Below are positions 26,239 through 62,547 of a stretch of DNA of 64,000 nt, in pieces (the stretch's first letter is position 1; every line of letters begins with the position of its first letter). The position numbers were made by a program, and so were the translations under genes. The notes beneath the pieces are model-generated. The model saw nothing but the letters and a program-made list of their open reading frames with translations, did not search any database and had not been told where the DNA came from. Origin of the DNA: an uncultured Verrucomicrobiae bacterium (GTDB taxonomy: Bacteria; Verrucomicrobiota; Verrucomicrobiia; Chthoniobacterales; JAATET01); the NCBI GenBank assembly GCA_963719495.1, contig CAVRCI010000005.1:1-64000 (forward strand), written 5' to 3'.

Positions 26239-26512
26239 GCGGCTCCGGCGAGTGTCGGAACAAGCGCTCCGCGAACGCGGGGTGCGGCTGCGGAATGATC
26301 GTCGGGACGCAGGAATCTCAACCCGGAGGGCGCAGGGTGTGATCGAAAATGCGTTCAAGCAAAGCCCGGAAGGTGCCAGTGAACTCGGGATCAACGAGCC
26401 CGCACGCGTCGAACCGCATGTAAGGCCCACGCACGAATGGCCATGATACCGCCCACGCGGCGAAGCAAACCTCCAGTCACCCTCCGAGTTTGCGGTAGAA
26501 CGCCCCACGGAC

Positions 26513-26560
26513 CCCATTACCGATAAAATGTAACGGCCGTTACATTTTATCGGTAATGGG
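26513..26560. repeat. 48-bp perfect palindrome (GTAACGGCCGTTAC-core family)
   Basis: cccattaccgataaaatgtaacgg|ccgttacattttatcggtaatggg. Confidence 0.95.
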
Positions 26561-26685
26561 TTGCTGGCGGGATTTTCGGGGGAGCCCCGCGGCTTGCAGC
26601 TGGCAAGCCGGAGCTTGCCCGTTCAAAGGCCGCAGATCCGCGGGCACCCGGACAGCGAGCGGCGACCCAACGAGCAAATCCGCTC

Positions 26686-26719
26686 CCGATAGAATGTAAC
26701 GGCCGTTACATTTTATCGG
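26686..26719. repeat. 34-bp near-perfect palindrome, same family
   Basis: ccgatagaatgtaacgg|ccgttacattttatcgg. Confidence 0.95.
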
Positions 26720-27212
26720 TCGACTCTGCGGGGACCGGGGAGGCGCTGGGATGACCCGGGAGTCCCTCTGCCGCCAGGCTTTGGATCGCGGCGATCTTCC
26801 ACGGATTCGTCGCCAGCCTCCTGGCATCCCCCCGGTCAGACATCGTTGGCCTTCGCAAGATTCTTCTTCCGATCAAGACGCGCTCTCGATCACACCCGGA
26901 GGGCGAAGCACCCGCCGAGCCGCATTTTATCGCACGGATGCGAGTGATAATCGGGTGCTTCGGAGGCGATGTTTTAGCCGGGGCCTGGTCCTTCGGGGAC
27001 GATCGCCCGGAAGGGGACTCGACCCGAACCGAATAGAAAACTCTTTACGAGATCGTCGGGAATTTTTCCGATCGATCGTAGGTGCAAAAAGTGGGCGGGG
27101 CGGGCGGGTCTCGACGTTTGTCCGCGAGCCCGTCTTTGCCAACACGCTTTCGCTCGACGCTCCCGCGGAGATCTCCCGCTGCGGGATTCCGGTGCGATGG
27201 TGTGATGGCGAA

Positions 27213-39084: not shown

Positions 39085-39651
39085 CTACGGCGCAACCACG
39101 ATCCCGGCCCCCGCGACCCCCACGTCCAGCGCTTTGAAGAACTTCCCCGTCCACTGCAACCGCACGACGTTAGGATCACTCGAACCCACTGCCGTGAATT
39201 CCGTGGGGACAAACGGCGATCCCGGGACGTCCGCGACCGGCGTCTTGAGGAGCATCAGCACCGCCTCCTCGTCCGCGAATCCGCTCGCCGCCGCGTTCGG
39301 CACCGTCTCCACGACCTGCCCGTAGTGCGTGACCGCCCGGTTGAGGAATTCCATCGCGTCCCCCGACACGCCGGACTTCGCGGCCGACAACAGCCCGCCG
39401 AGCCGCGGGATCGCGATCGCCGCCAGGATCCCGATCACCGCGATCGTCACCAACATCTCCGGCAACGAAAACCCCCTCCGGCCAGCGGCAGCTCGTCCCA
39501 AATCCGGAGGGCGAGGCTCCGCCAAGCCGTGATCTCCACGCGACGGTCGCAGCGTTTTCAGTCCACACCGTCCCGCAAGGCGCACGCCAACCACGGAAGC
39601 CACGGCTCGGCGGAGCCTCGCCCTCCGATCTGGGGACACGCTTCGCGGCAT
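39085..39651 (-). CDS. prepilin/pseudopilin with a family C REP pair in its extended leader
   Basis: G|FSLPEMLVTIAVIGILAAIAIP. ATG lies 2 nt after the upstream stop. Confidence 0.85.
   Translation of the reverse strand: MPRSVSPDRRARLRRAVASVVGVRLAGRCGLKTLRPSRGDHGLAEPRPPDLGRAAAGRRGFSLPEMLVTIAVIGILAAIAIPRLGGLLSAAKSGVSGDAMEFLNRAVTHYGQVVETVPNAAASGFADEEAVLMLLKTPVADVPGSPFVPTEFTAVGSSDPNVVRLQWTGKFFKALDVGVAGAGIVVAP
39506..39626. repeat. REP-like family C inverted pair inside the prepilin reading frame
   Basis: Arms 39506-39531 and 39601-39626. Confidence 0.92.
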
Positions 39652-39653
39652 AC

Positions 39654-40136
39654 TCAATAGGGCACGGCCGCCCCGCCCTTGGTCAGGTCCAGCTTGCGCA
39701 GCGTCAACACGTCATTCGGCAGATCCATTCCGTAGCCGCCCGGCACGTATCCCGCCAACGTCGCCGGTGCGAACGCCAGATAGGGCGCGGCCAACGCGTA
39801 GCGAGCCGGGTCGTCGGTTGCCCCCGACCACGCGCTGTTCGCGACCGATTTTCCTTTCGCCTGAACGAACGCCGCCGTCGCCAGATTGAGCGCCTCCGCC
39901 CGGGCGATCGCCAGGTGCGTTTCGCTGTCGTCCTTCACTTGCACGATGTTCGGAATCGCCAGGAATACGATCACGCCCACCAAAGCCACCGCCACGAGGA
40001 CCTCGACCAACGAAAACCCGGTGTAGCGGCGGTCTGTGACCGCCGCACTTCTCGTCGACAGCTTGTCGAGCGTTCCCGCTTCACGTCCCCGGCGCTCACA
40101 GAGCGCCGCTACAGGCAAATGCGACCATTCCCTCAT
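39654..40136 (-). CDS. prepilin/pseudopilin with a family B REP pair in its leader
   Basis: MREWSHLPVAALCERR...AAVTDRRYTG|FSLVEVLV. ATGA overlap with the upstream stop. Confidence 0.88.
   Translation of the reverse strand: MREWSHLPVAALCERRGREAGTLDKLSTRSAAVTDRRYTGFSLVEVLVAVALVGVIVFLAIPNIVQVKDDSETHLAIARAEALNLATAAFVQAKGKSVANSAWSGATDDPARYALAAPYLAFAPATLAGYVPGGYGMDLPNDVLTLRKLDLTKGGAAVPY
40022..40113. repeat. REP-like family B inverted pair inside the prepilin leader
   Basis: tgtagcggcggtctgtgaccgccg / cggcgctcacagagcgccgctaca. Confidence 0.92.
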
Positions 40137-40567
40137 GGCCCGACCTGCACCTTGGGGTAGCTCCCCGCCGTCCACGTGGAAAACGTGACGTATTTACCCG
40201 TTTTCTCCATCGCGTCCGTGTTGAGCGCATCGCCGATCGTCGCGTGAGCTTTCAATTGATCTTTCGTCGACTTCGAGATGTAGGGCTCAATCAGGGCAAC
40301 CTTCTGCGCCACGGTTGTCTGCGCCTCGTAGAACGACCTCGCCGCATCGAGACTTCCCCGGCCCGTGACCGAACTCGCCTTGGAAACCCAGGTATTGAGC
40401 GCCTCCTGCAGCACCGCCTGCTGCTGCTTGACGACCACGCCCCGCGCATCCTGCGTCGCATTCGCGAACGAGGCGACCACCATGGACGCCATCACGCCGA
40501 TGATCGCGATTACGATGATCAACTCGATCAACGAAAACGCCCGGAAAGTTGTTGAGCCGATTTTCAT
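40133..40567 (-). CDS. prepilin
   Basis: MKIGSTTFRA|FSLIELIIVIAII. Confidence 0.9.
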   Translation of the reverse strand: MKIGSTTFRAFSLIELIIVIAIIGVMASMVVASFANATQDARGVVVKQQQAVLQEALNTWVSKASSVTGRGSLDAARSFYEAQTTVAQKVALIEPYISKSTKDQLKAHATIGDALNTDAMEKTGKYVTFSTWTAGSYPKVQVGP

Positions 40568-40582
40568 GAAACCTTTCGCCGC

Positions 40583-40611
40583 AAAAGCCCCCGGCGTTTC
40601 CGCCGGAGGCT
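40583..40611 (-). terminator. intrinsic terminator after the putative major pilin
   Basis: Minus strand agcctccggcg-gaaa-cgccgggggct-ttt. Confidence 0.75.
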
Positions 40612-44363: not shown

Positions 44364-44786
44364 TCAGCGCACCGTCGGCCGCACCAGCTCCATGTCGTGA
44401 CTCCGCGTCGCGCTCGCGTCGCCGCCCGTCCACGTCCCCGCCGACCACGAACCGGTCGCCGCCGAAGCCCGGACGACCAGCGTGCAAGTCGTCCGCTCCA
44501 TCGACAACCCATCGACGTCGACCAGCACCGCCGGACTCGGCGAGAACGTCACCGACACCACGGCGGGATCCGCCGGGAGCAGAGCCGCAATCTCGTTGGT
44601 GTTCATCCCGAGATGGTAAAGCCGCGCCGCCTGCTCTTGAAGGTTTAACGCCCGCGCGACCCGCGCGTTCGCCTCGCCCTGCGCCGTGACCGCGAGCGTC
44701 ATCGACACCGCCGCCAACACCGCCACCGCGAGGATCGCGCCCGCGACCATCACTTCGACCAGCGAATATGCGCCCTTCCGGCTCAC
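44364..44786 (-). CDS. minor pilin (PilV/GspI-like)
   Basis: MSRKGA|YSLVEVMVAGAIL. GTGA overlap. Confidence 0.8.
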   Translation of the reverse strand: MSRKGAYSLVEVMVAGAILAVAVLAAVSMTLAVTAQGEANARVARALNLQEQAARLYHLGMNTNEIAALLPADPAVVSVTFSPSPAVLVDVDGLSMERTTCTLVVRASAATGSWSAGTWTGGDASATRSHDMELVRPTVR

Positions 44787-46117
44787 GGCGAAAACACCTC
44801 CAACCAGCCGTCCCGCGCCGTGAGCTGATCCAGCAAGCGCGGCTCCGGCTCCCGGGCAAAAGTCAGCGTCCCGGTCGGCACCGTGACGTCCCGATCCGAC
44901 CGCAGACCGCCCCGGATTCCGAGAGCGGGCGAGCTGATGTTCAGAGTCAGCGGGCAATTTTCCAGCGTGAAAATCCCCCGCCATTCAGCCGCCGCCCCCG
45001 ACAGGAAATTAAAGTTCACGCCAGTTCCATCCAGCTTCTTCACCGCGAACACGAGCTTCCGTTCACTGAACCCGGTAAAATCCACATTGACCAAGTCCGG
45101 TGATCCCAACGGCTGAACGAACACGACGAGCAACGCGATGTGGAGATCGGCCGCATCGCCCTCGGCCACGGTCGTCTGACCGGTGAATACGATCCGCGAT
45201 GTATTCCCCTCGATGAAAACGGCCTCCAGATTCGGGTTCGACAAATCGAGCGTCACCGTCCCAGCCCCGTCCGAGCTCCAGCCCACCCCGCTCGTGCCAC
45301 TGGTCCCGTCGACGAGCACCGGGCTCTTCAACTTCGCAAAGAGCTCATTCGGGCCCCCGCCATTCTTGATCACGTTCAACCGCCCGGCGAAATCCGCAGA
45401 CGTCCCGACATCTCCACTCGTCCGCGCGACGAACGGGAAGTTCGCCACCAGCACGTCGGGCGGCAAGCTCGACGGCGCGTTGAAGGTCGTCGCTGAGATC
45501 GAGCCCGCGCCCGCGAACCACACCACCGCTTCACCCAGCACACCGACGGATCCCGACACCAGGGTCGTCGGTGCCGCGTTGAGCGTCGGCTTGTTTCGGG
45601 TCAGCAACGTTCCCGCCAACTCCGGCGAATAAGAACGCAGCAAAACATTCCGGACGGTCGGAAAAGGATCGCCCGCCACCGCGGCCAACGCGACCGACCG
45701 CGTGACCGAGAAACCGGCACCGTCGGCCGGATTAAAGTGATTCCAACCATTCGGACCGACCGTGGACTCGAGCGGAACCAGCGCGGACCCAATCGCCGCC
45801 GTCGACATCACCCCCCAACCACCGCCCACGTCGGCGGTGACCGCCGGCGCGTTTGCGACATTCTTTGTCAGCAGACGCGTCGCGAAATACTGCCGCGCCA
45901 ACGCCGTCGCGTTCAGCTCGGCCACCCGCCGCTGCGAAGCATCCGTCATCGTCTCCACGTAAGCCGTCTCCGCCGACATCACCGCCACCCAACCCGCCGA
46001 CAGCGCCCCGCCCACCAGGATCACCACCAACACAATGAGTAACACCCCTCCCCTTGAGGAGCGGCGATTTTCAATCGCCGAACCAACCCTCAGGCGAAGC
46101 CTCATCCCCCCCCTCAT
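44783..46117 (-). CDS. PilX/GspK-like minor pilin with a family D REP in its leader
   Basis: MRGGMRLRLRVGSAIENRRSSRG|GVLLIVLVVIL, no E5. ATGA overlap. Confidence 0.75.
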   Translation of the reverse strand: MRGGMRLRLRVGSAIENRRSSRGGVLLIVLVVILVGGALSAGWVAVMSAETAYVETMTDASQRRVAELNATALARQYFATRLLTKNVANAPAVTADVGGGWGVMSTAAIGSALVPLESTVGPNGWNHFNPADGAGFSVTRSVALAAVAGDPFPTVRNVLLRSYSPELAGTLLTRNKPTLNAAPTTLVSGSVGVLGEAVVWFAGAGSISATTFNAPSSLPPDVLVANFPFVARTSGDVGTSADFAGRLNVIKNGGGPNELFAKLKSPVLVDGTSGTSGVGWSSDGAGTVTLDLSNPNLEAVFIEGNTSRIVFTGQTTVAEGDAADLHIALLVVFVQPLGSPDLVNVDFTGFSERKLVFAVKKLDGTGVNFNFLSGAAAEWRGIFTLENCPLTLNISSPALGIRGGLRSDRDVTVPTGTLTFAREPEPRLLDQLTARDGWLEVFSP

Positions 46118-47211
46118 AACGCCGGAAACATCGGAACCGCAAAAAACAGCGAAGTCCGCCCCCCCATGCCCGCGTAGCTCGCCCGCGCCTCCGTCGCGCC
46201 GTCGGCCCCCACGGTCGCCGCCCCGAAATCCATCGCCGCCGGATCCGGCCACCAAAGAAAATAAAACGGCCCACCCCGCGCCACCTTCAACCGATCCACG
46301 GCATCACCCTCCACCGACACCCGCCGCGCCGACCGTTCGAACGCCACGACCACCGGACTGAACGCGACCGACCCGCCGCCCGCAATCTCCGGGTAAAACA
46401 CATCGTAAAAATCCGTCATCGCCGTCCCCACGTAGCGCCGCACGCTCACGTAAGTCCCCTTGGGCGAAGTCGTCGTCACGAAATCAACGTCGTAAATCGC
46501 GTGCACTACCAACTCCTCCGGATCCGCCGAAGGTTGCAGCAAAAACACCGACGCGTTCTGAGCCCCCGACGCACCGCGGTAGGACACGAAGGCCGCCGGA
46601 TTCGGGAGCAAAGCCCGAAACGCGTCCGGCGAATCCGTCCCCCGCCCGACCGCACCCGCCGCCACGGCAATAATCTGCGGACGTTGCTCGTTCAGCCCGC
46701 TGCGACCCAGACAGAAGACCGCGCTCGACCGCCCGACATCCTCCCAGAACAAATCGCGCAACCGATCCGCCGCCGCCCGCCGCCCGTAATTCGGAGCCAC
46801 GAACGCGTCCGTCCCCACGGCGTCGAGCCCATAGAAATTGAGCATCGCCGGCTTCCCGATCGTCACGAACTCGAACGTTGCCGTCGCCCGCCGCCCCGCG
46901 CCCAGACTTTGAAAAACGATCACCCCCACCGTGATCACCGCCACCCCGATCGCGAGAGCCACCGCCACCTCCACCAACGAGAAGCCCCTCGTCCAAGGGT
47001 AGGGCAGCCGGGCCCCGGGTGCCGTCGCCTTCACGCTCGCGCGCCCGACCCGACCGATTCGCTCCGCCAAGCCGGGGGTCTCGCGAGATAGCGGTCCCGC
47101 ATCCGAAGAACCTCGCGATTGGTGAAAGAAGTGGGCACCCGGCGGCGCGGCTGCCCTACCCGGGCAACGAAGCCGCCGGCGGCGGCTGAGGCTACCGGGC
47201 GGCGCGAGCAT
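46114..47211 (-). CDS. PilW/GspJ-like minor pilin with a family A REP pair in its leader
   Basis: ...ARLPYPWTRG|FSLVEVAVAL. ATG 47211 has GGAGG upstream; alternative start GTG 47034. Confidence 0.78.
   Translation of the reverse strand: MLAPPGSLSRRRRLRCPGRAAAPPGAHFFHQSRGSSDAGPLSRETPGLAERIGRVGRASVKATAPGARLPYPWTRGFSLVEVAVALAIGVAVITVGVIVFQSLGAGRRATATFEFVTIGKPAMLNFYGLDAVGTDAFVAPNYGRRAAADRLRDLFWEDVGRSSAVFCLGRSGLNEQRPQIIAVAAGAVGRGTDSPDAFRALLPNPAAFVSYRGASGAQNASVFLLQPSADPEELVVHAIYDVDFVTTTSPKGTYVSVRRYVGTAMTDFYDVFYPEIAGGGSVAFSPVVVAFERSARRVSVEGDAVDRLKVARGGPFYFLWWPDPAAMDFGAATVGADGATEARASYAGMGGRTSLFFAVPMFPAL
46997..47161. repeat. REP-like family A inverted pair
   Basis: gggtagggcagccgggccccgggtgcc / ggcacccggcggcgcggctgccctaccc. 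Confidence 0.88.
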
Positions 47212-50933: not shown

Positions 50934-50948
50934 GAGCTTAGCGAGTTC

Positions 50949-51341
50949 GAACCACGGATGGACACGGATGAACCCAGATGGTCTCAAAAACTTCGGCGCA
51001 ACCATCCCCCAAACCTGTTCTCGTTGCGAGGACCCCGAACGCGCCAGCGAGTCGGGAAGCCGGGGATGACATTGGCAACCCCGCGGCAGCAGCCGCCCCC
51101 ATCGGGCATTCGGAGGGCGAGGCTCCTGCCGAGCCGTGGCCTTCACGTTGGATTCGGCCCACGCAGACCGATGTCATTGGCAGCGAAGTGAAAGATCTCC
51201 GGCCTCGCCTGCGAAACCGCCCACCACCCAGGAAAGTCAGAGATCCTTCGCTCCGCTCAGAATGACAAGATTGCAAAAAGCGATCCGCGTTCATCCGTGT
51301 CCATCCGCGGTTCCTCATCAAGTATGTCCATCCGTGGTCCC
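50949..51341. repeat. nested cluster of three or more REP-like families
   Basis: An outer IR (50949-50979 / 51283-51313) encloses a family C arm (51112-51139) and a TGTCAT..GATCT pair (51172-51198 / 51241-51267). Confidence 0.85.
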
Positions 51342-51344
51342 GCA

Positions 51345-61860: not shown

Positions 61861-62117
61861 TGGGGAAGAGAGAAGTAAATAGCCACCCGCTCGCGTGTCA
61901 AACCGCAACAACCGCGAGAACCGCACGCCCGACAACCGCAAACGTCGGCGCGCGATGAAAAGTGCGATCAGCCGTGAAGGGACGGATCTCCGATGCCCAC
62001 GGCGTTTCACCCGGGAGCCTTCGAGTCGCCCGGAATAAATCGAGCCGAATGGCCGGAACGATCCCCACAACCCACCGCAAGACCACGGACTCTTCGACCA
62101 TCCCAGCATCGACCGAA

Positions 62118-62163
62118 CCGCCCCCGATTAAACGTAACGGGCGTTACGTTTAATCGGGGGCGG
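62118..62163. repeat. 46-bp palindrome, GTAACGG-core family
   Basis: ccgcccccgattaaacgtaacg-gg-cgttacgtttaatcgggggcgg. Confidence 0.93.
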
Positions 62164-62291
62164 GATTGATCCACGCCGTCGCGACTCCTGATCACCAATG
62201 GTTGGATCCACGGCCCATTTCATGAGCTGGACCAACACTCTCCGCAGAAACCACGCGGGCACCCCCGATCCCTGACTTCACCGCACTCATT

Positions 62292-62327
62292 CCCGATTGA
62301 ACGTAACGGCCGTTACATTTTATCGGG
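62292..62327. repeat. imperfect palindrome, GTAACGGCCGTTAC-core family
   Basis: cccgattgaacgtaacgg|ccgttacattttatcggg. Confidence 0.9.
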
Positions 62328-62547
62328 GGGGATGAGGGCGACGCTTGGTTGAAAAATTCGAGGGTGCCGAGGTTGGCCTCAGATTGCCGCGAGGTGGGCG
62401 GGAGGCTCGCACCCATCGCGTCAGCCGTCTCCGAACATACCTGGGCCGCTGGTCGCGGACGATATCACCCTGCCACGCCCACCTCCCGGGAAGCGGATCC
62501 CCACTCGAGGCGGGCTTGGATGACTCCCAGCGCTCGCCGCCCGCCAC

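Follow-up and report, generated by a model that had tools for sequence, protein, structure and literature searches.

The leader of a type IV minor pilin gene, here called gene O, carries an in-frame 90-nt REP doublet, which accounts for 30 of the 40 leader residues. Judging from sequence comparison, the doublet is probably translated and then removed together with the leader by prepilin peptidase; its presence is predicted to be nearly neutral, with the leader serving as a permissive landing site. Gene O is found in the window, that is, the whole 64,000-nt stretch of DNA that was analyzed (contig C5, positions 1 to 64000), of a genome (G000) of 4.54 Mb in 16 contigs.

The gene is located on the minus strand of the window in a type IV pilus cluster which comprises a secretin, PilT, PilMNO-like genes (a putative label, drawn from gene position), pilins, PilC, a two-component pair, four small pilins, and PilB and of which the synteny is kept in three congeners. 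PilB-, PilT-, PilC-, and secretin-like genes of the assembly machinery are present in the cluster, and an intact prepilin peptidase, PilD, with both of its domains (A24_N_bact and Peptidase_A24), is encoded on contig C9. The product of gene O matches Pfam N_methyl (PF07963; 26.9 bits, with a cutoff of 21.2) and TIGR02532 (18.9, with a cutoff of 16.3). With Gly at −1, Phe1, Glu5, and a hydrophobic stretch, it fits the type IV prepilins with a class III signal peptide, which are defined by Gly or Ala at −1, Phe1, Glu5, and 20 to 25 hydrophobic residues. Translation of the minus strand from position 40136 yields MREWSHLP, VAALCERR, a spacer, AAVTDRRY, TG, and FSLVEVLV, the same reading as in a preliminary description of this DNA, which had also pointed out that the ATG overlaps the TGA of the upstream gene. 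Through this ATGA, gene O is presumably translationally coupled to upstream pilin N. Coordinates of the features are listed in the table. Elsewhere in the cluster, a GC-rich hairpin, a probable terminator or attenuator, is located at window positions 40587 to 40611 between the probable major pilin and the pilin that follows it and is kept 5′ of the ATG in G002, G004, G005, G006, G007, and G148. Several pilin genes are frameshifted in the pilin cluster of G005, which are likely assembly errors (the assembly is 79% complete).

Table. Features of the pilus cluster in the window and of repeat-bearing genes elsewhere in G000 (window positions unless a contig is given)
Feature	Position	Strand	Description
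Gene O, type IV minor pilin	39654..40136	−	160 aa: 40-residue leader and 120-residue mature pilin
Predicted cleaved leader of gene O	40017..40136	−	40 codons, Gly-1 last; predicted cleavage between 40017 and 40016
ATGA start/stop overlap of gene O with upstream pilin N	40133..40136	−	ATG 40136-40134, TGA 40135-40133
REP doublet (REPIN type)	40023..40112		90 nt with a GTAG at each outer end; codon-exact within the leader of gene O
First arm	40090..40112	−	Encodes VAALCERR; variant with a compensatory stem change
Second arm	40023..40045	+	Family consensus; minus-strand reading AVTDRRY
Upstream pilin N	40133..40567	−	10-residue leader without a repeat
Downstream pilin P	39085..39651	−	In-frame doublet of a second repeat family (about 39504-39628) in a 60-residue leader
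Minor pilin G	46114..47211	−	76-residue leader with a doublet of a third repeat family (46996-47161), whose end lies 12 nt before Phe1
Putative PilX-like protein H	44783..46117	−	Conserved ATGA overlap, followed in the leader by one arm of a fourth repeat family (46056-46089)
Control junction before pilT	50934..51344		411 nt of nested repeats, all 5′ of the conserved native ATG
Inserts in UvrA, ValRS, LeuRS, IspG, and urea carboxylase	C15:12866-18475, C8:49132-51954, C10:1252-4539, C5:123687-125630, C9:195814-200007		Loci in G000

Both ends of the doublet are in phase 0, and only ACC GGG lies between the doublet and Phe1, in agreement with the earlier placement of the end of a GTAG-type REP arm about two codons before the G/F site. 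Copies of the second arm in G000 number 33 when exact, 44 with at most one mismatch, and 54 with at most three mismatches, and the exact and near copies are spread over 13 of the 16 contigs. The arm pattern read backwards, which was used as a control, had no match in any of the 61 genomes searched. The distribution of the family is patchy (present in 12 of these 61 genomes), and no copy of the arm REP was found in G002, G004, or G005 (97, 88, and 79% complete, respectively). Both arms are DNA hairpins with 9-bp and 8-bp stems and 3-nt loops (z of −6.9 for the second arm and −3.9 for the first); none of 200 shuffles was equally stable. Arm to arm, the RNA of the leader region folds into a stem of −66.2 kcal/mol (z of −2.43), a stability reached by 3 of 200 shuffles. 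The terminal GTAG on both arms, stems of about 6 to 9 bp, and many dispersed, mostly extragenic copies identify the family as GTAG-tagged REPs, and the pairing of two inverted REPs into a hairpin of about 100 bp (here 90 nt, arm to arm) makes the doublet one of REPIN type. Doublets of this family in G000 (n = 12) measure 88 nt in seven cases, 87 nt in two, and 86, 90, and 91 nt in one each, and only in the 90-nt doublet of gene O does an open frame continue into a coding region of high score. In three DNA sequencing runs, no contig across gene O was found; doublets of the same REP with other spacers, from other organisms, were present and were left out of the evidence.

In the frame of gene O, an ATG and a TTG are located 40 and 34 codons before Phe1, respectively, and one further GTG is located inside the upstream gene. 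As had been claimed, there is no in-frame ATG, GTG, or TTG between the start of the repeat and Gly-1, the in-frame starts all being 5′ of the repeat. The spacer of the doublet contains an in-frame CTG, and a start there would still leave the second arm translated; indeed, no start that retains the leader avoids translation of this arm, because nothing but the two codons mentioned above separates the repeat from Phe1. Leu+3 of the mature protein is encoded by TTG, which on the ortholog comparison is not a conserved start, since 47 of 58 orthologs use CTC, CTG, CTT, TTC, or CTA at that codon.

Orthologs of gene O were present in 57 of the 401 genomes of the order, which is probably Chthoniobacterales, and were examined together with one partial copy (58 in total); start positions were scored in the 56 with the upstream pilin in the locus. 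The start overlaps the upstream stop at −4 in 37 of these 56 orthologs (with ATG in 32) and lies within −4 to +15 in 49. The closest ortholog, that of G004, is 79% identical in the mature part; its start is in the same ATGA context, and its leader has 6 residues and no repeat. Because most of the orthologs, including that of G004, share the start position, the ATG of gene O is an ancestral start, with the repeat inserted 3′ of it. The comparison with orthologs lacking the repeat, proposed in the preliminary description as a check, showed that the leader is different and short there, and the insertion is therefore real. The preliminary description would not have held if orthologs had the same leader with no copies of the repeat elsewhere in the genome or if gene O were untranslated or a pseudogene. 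The leaders of repeat-free orthologs differ, however, and copies of the REP are dispersed in G000. Gene O has no stop and no frameshift, and the mature part compared to that of G004 has a dN of 0.144 and a dS of 1.169 (dN/dS of about 0.12); G000 and G004 are equally identical (71%) to G002 in this gene. On these rates, mature gene O is under purifying selection with no sign of decay or rate acceleration. The conserved start, the purifying selection, and the intact prepilin peptidase together make it very likely that the repeat is translated, and the earlier statement that it must be translated is well supported by the ortholog starts, the ATGA context in G004, and the apparent selection on the mature part.

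The repeat might instead be untranslated, either because gene O is silent or decaying or because a noncanonical start is used behind most of the repeat. The CTG in the spacer could provide such a start, and many N-terminal REPs may be extragenic according to the accessible part of PMC3733652, but under any start that keeps the leader the second arm is read, the ATG is the conserved start of a gene with no stop, frameshift, or rate acceleration, and the doublet is the only one of the 12 with a length of 90 nt. Of the alternatives considered here, we regard this one as the least probable.

Under the preferred reading, that of a translated and discarded doublet, the operon is tightly packed and almost gap free, with genes starting on the upstream stop, and the leader would be the one stretch free in both length and sequence. 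A RAYT-mobilized doublet would have inserted behind the coupled ATG and would survive if the frame was kept and no stop was introduced, a presumed filter that 90 nt passes by keeping the only open frame; the RR before the cleavage site would be a by-product of this filter. The ribosome, engaged at the coupled ATGA, would translate across the hairpin. By the positive-inside rule, the cytoplasmic leader of 40 residues would set the orientation of the pilin, and PilD would cut at G/F, leaving the mature pilin unchanged. Twelve Y1_Tnp matches were found in G000, several of which are flanked by other repeat families and none by the REP of gene O. Among 42 Y1_Tnp loci from six genomes, a single one, in G054, is flanked by this REP: the flanks of the Y1 transposase (RAYT-like) gene hold a doublet that combines the same two arm types, as well as a REP with exactly the sequence of the first arm. 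The RAYT-like protein of G054 had no tblastn match in G000. Insertion of the doublet would presumably have been driven by a RAYT.

The arm-to-arm stem (−66.2 kcal/mol) could also have a regulatory role, in that an RNA hairpin behind the coupled start might lower translation of the minor pilin or stabilize the upstream polycistronic mRNA and might be kept for that reason. Apart from the length of the stem and its rank among the shuffles, this is consistent with the presence of repeats in four minor-pilin-type genes of one operon and with effects of REP hairpins on mRNA stability and translation, as reported in the portion of 10.1101/2024.07.17.603846 that was consulted. However, such a hairpin is absent from most orthologs, the repeat families differ from gene to gene, and the first 20 nt after the upstream stop are free of the repeat, which puts it past the 15-nt limit of REP stalling quoted in the same portion of that work. 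We therefore consider a regulatory role very unlikely.

With regard to the basic residues of the leader, the preliminary description had claimed that they (RR) are supplied by the repeat, as an exaptation. For this gene today, the supply of RR by the repeat was borne out, as the whole 40-residue leader has a net charge of +3, while the ten residues outside the insert have a net charge of 0 and no K or R in the last six, a finding that counts against neutrality of the insert. A need for RR was not borne out. The GTAG-first arm has a stop in two of its three frames, so that a codon-exact, in-frame doublet must begin with VAA and end with DRRY, and since the only open arm frame forces DRRY, RR is expected without selection. 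Moreover, ortholog leaders have K or R of their own in the last 10 residues in 55 of 58 cases, with or without a repeat, and 10 of the 58 have none in the last 6 residues, which leaves the proposed exaptation with little in its favor.

Exaptation as a lock-in would mean that the repeat-encoded RR has taken over a function in the positive-inside rule or in recognition by the peptidase, that native basic residues have been lost or displaced, and that the repeat can no longer be deleted. The lack of charge outside the insert speaks for this, given that 55 of the 59 prepilins of G000 have K or R in the last six leader residues, as do the net charge of at least +1 in 48 of 49 scored ortholog leaders and the end of the insert two codons from Gly-1. 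Besides the forced frame and the 10 orthologs without nearby K or R, it is opposed by the identity of the second arm to the genome consensus at the DNA level, which points to recent arrival or conversion and not to protein-level selection, and by other inserts in the same leader, which end uncharged (SSSSPA-like). Unrelated repeats are found in the same leader in other lineages, which therefore argues for tolerance rather than recruitment, and we consider such a locked-in function unlikely.

In G341, the gene O leader contains a different GTAG doublet (5 copies in that genome), and in G012 it contains inverted heptamer arrays (11 overlapping matches on 7 contigs). In six genomes of genus g29, the leader is heptamer derived and in frame at 28, 28, 35, 41, 48, and 62 aa, and the exact three-unit string was found outside the leader in 3 of the 5 g29 genomes searched. 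A heptamer-like run in the gene O leader of G006 has one match in that genome; this element and a doublet-like element in the leader of the upstream pilin of G006 (one match each) were not counted as demonstrated repeats. A later start could skip the repeat in 3 (G051, G204, and G225) of the 10 genomes with a repeat in the gene O leader. On a quick PilB tree, limited to 47 of the 58 genomes (the 11 without full PilB or gene O in the fetched stretch were left out), the repeat-in-leader label needs six changes, which we read as five gains and one loss, or four gains without G006. The gene O leader thus appears to have taken up unrelated repeats four to five times independently.

Measured from the coupled start, leader lengths are 6 to 62 aa for gene O (49 of 56 scored) and 5 to 62 aa for gene P (35 of 43). 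The coupled non-pilin genes, by comparison, have constant N termini, with offsets of 0 to 1 codon for PilM (10 of 11), 12 codons for PilN (9 of 11), and 0 codons for PilO (11 of 11), and the offset of PilB is −1 to 2 in 28 of 30 scored. In the operons of relatives (G000 excluded), a repeat is read from the coupled start at 8 of 150 prepilin junctions versus none of 127 others, but the 8 cases go back to three independent events and a weak match of a 14-mer, and the control is weak, with any repeat at all in 2 of the 127 non-prepilin junctions. In G004, 1 of 16 prepilin leaders contains a repeat. The flanks of the insert in gene O are unlike the G004 leader, and a clean empty site was not seen among the orthologs, which are too diverged. 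In a separate pilin gene (C5:140086-140923) and its G004 ortholog, the leaders carry two sister variants of a single REP family, both in frame and in the same place, a result of conversion or repeated insertion.

In the operon of G000 itself, four prepilin-type genes (O, P, G, and H) contain four different repeat families. Translation of the repeat in gene P is not forced, since a TTG after it could give a 10-residue leader. The ATG of gene G overlaps the upstream gene by 20 nt (20 to 41 nt in orthologs). That noncanonical starts are common in the operon, as suggested by five orthologs in which gene G seemed to lack a start, was ruled out, because their ATGs lie 26 to 41 nt inside the upstream gene. 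Protein H had no Pfam match, and its PilX-like label is a tentative one based on position and N terminus. The junction before pilT, where there is no cleaved leader, measures 6 nt in G004. Window positions 26506 to 26720 and 62099 to 62351 hold additional REP doublets, whose family is marked by a long perfect palindrome.

A six-frame motif scan of G000 yielded 66 matches, of which 7 were discarded by eye as false, leaving 59 prepilins. A high-copy repeat was found within 200 nt in 7 of these and between the start and Phe1 in 6. As a control, N termini were compared over 1.24 Mb of the 4.1 Mb of G004, which gave 663 ortholog pairs (17 prepilin-type and 646 others). Translated repeats were seen by eye in about 10 (at most 13) of the 646 other N termini, three of which are signal-peptide-like. 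The enrichment in prepilins (6 of 59 versus about 10 of 646) gave P = 0.001 (P = 0.003 with 13), and without the operon of discovery it dropped to 3 of 52 versus 10 of 646 (P = 0.066). In-frame repeats were also seen by eye inside about 16 non-pilin proteins, among them ThiC, FolP, NAD synthase, and, with REP or heptamer inserts, UvrA (three sites), ValRS, LeuRS, IspG, and urea carboxylase (four sites), often where G004 has a gap or other sequence. Because about 16 housekeeping-type proteins hold repeats, the genome is generally permissive, and these inserts ruled out a restriction of coding repeats to leaders; the prepilin leader would be the most permissive coding site of G000 and not the only one.

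Several further repeats were observed in G000. In a GspK-like pseudopilin (PF21687; C2:393254-394225), a leader REP is unchanged between G000 and G004, with an in-frame ATG within the REP. Repeats are also found before or inside Sec-type signal-peptide-like N termini (C5:127022-129217, C15:89925-91139, and C2:356254-357789), one of which is that of CoxB, which suggests that other cleaved leaders are permissive too. On contig C2 (27029 to 175128), about 195 copies of a 130-nt inverted-repeat element with a median spacing of 626 nt lie nearly all on one strand, and five more are found on C7; these resemble the attC sites of integrons and may belong to a very large cassette array. At C7:3909-5850 and C16:1-843, 45 repeats with a 65-nt spacing have the appearance of a CRISPR array.

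A broader and decidedly tentative reading, which we doubt, is that prepilin leaders form a hidden, quasi-intergenic niche in gap-free operons, in which selfish repeats land, are replaced by other families, decay in frame, and may become locked in via positive-inside charge. If this niche or the lock-in were real, it would offer a constructive-neutral route along which pilus assembly comes to need a REPIN that can no longer be deleted. Under the preferred reading, in which the insert is tolerated, gene O would provide a testable case of REP doublets that are translated without cost in a leader that is thrown away, the ancestral start being fixed and dozens of orthologs serving as controls. Such a case is relevant to the question of selfish versus useful REPINs, since tolerance is separable from benefit. 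In addition, pilin leaders of 40 to 76 residues may occur in repeat-rich genomes, in which start site calls and the short-leader assumptions of prediction tools may fail.

Intragenic GTAG REPs have been published for Opitutus terrae (Di Nocera, De Gregorio, and Rocco 2013, PMC3733652). The two cases are alike in phylum, in GTAG hairpins, and in singles and dimers that are in frame in proteins, and UvrA, dihydropteroate synthase (FolP), and tRNA ribosyltransferase-isomerase (QueA) are decorated with REPs both in O. terrae (PMC3733652 supplement) and in G000. They differ in that the accessible part of PMC3733652 treats N-terminal REPs as possibly misannotated, whereas orthologs fix the start of gene O, and its insert is part of a leader predicted to be cleaved. 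The word "pilin" had no match in the four supplementary files of PMC3733652, and no report of repeats in prepilin leaders was found in the literature searched, to which subscription journals contributed little. Rickettsia palindromic elements (RPEs; Ogata et al. 2000), which are CGTC tagged or about 105 to 146 bp long according to the consulted parts of PMC3733652 and PMC3184786, the latter of which reviews in-frame fusions including RPEs, are similar in that a palindromic repeat is in frame in an otherwise normal protein gene. By the same sources, RPEs stay in the mature protein, whereas the doublet of gene O is predicted to be removed posttranslationally; the insertion is in frame, but the sequence is GTAG tagged and 90 nt long, without a CGTC tag or RPE-type sequence of 105 to 146 bp. 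The doublet works like an RPE but is not one.

Prepilin leaders are described in the available part of a review (Pelicic 2023, PMC10191384) as hydrophilic and variable in length, with the positive-inside rule holding them in the cytoplasm, where they are removed, and with a very long one in Streptococcus sanguinis. Gene O resembles the class III prepilins of that part in its hydrophilic leader ending in Gly, followed by Phe1, Glu5, and a hydrophobic stretch, and differs from them in that three quarters of its leader are repeat derived. With REPIN-RAYT systems, the doublet shares two inverted REPs of about 90 nt end to end, an arm-to-arm hairpin, and a patchy distribution (12 of 61 genomes), and in G054 the same REP flanks a Y1_Tnp gene; unlike those systems, the doublet of gene O lies in coding sequence, and a cognate transposase was not found in the G000 assembly. 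What gene O adds to these known systems is a new setting, the prepilin leader, for known intragenic REPs, with unusually good ortholog controls, rather than an established exaptation.
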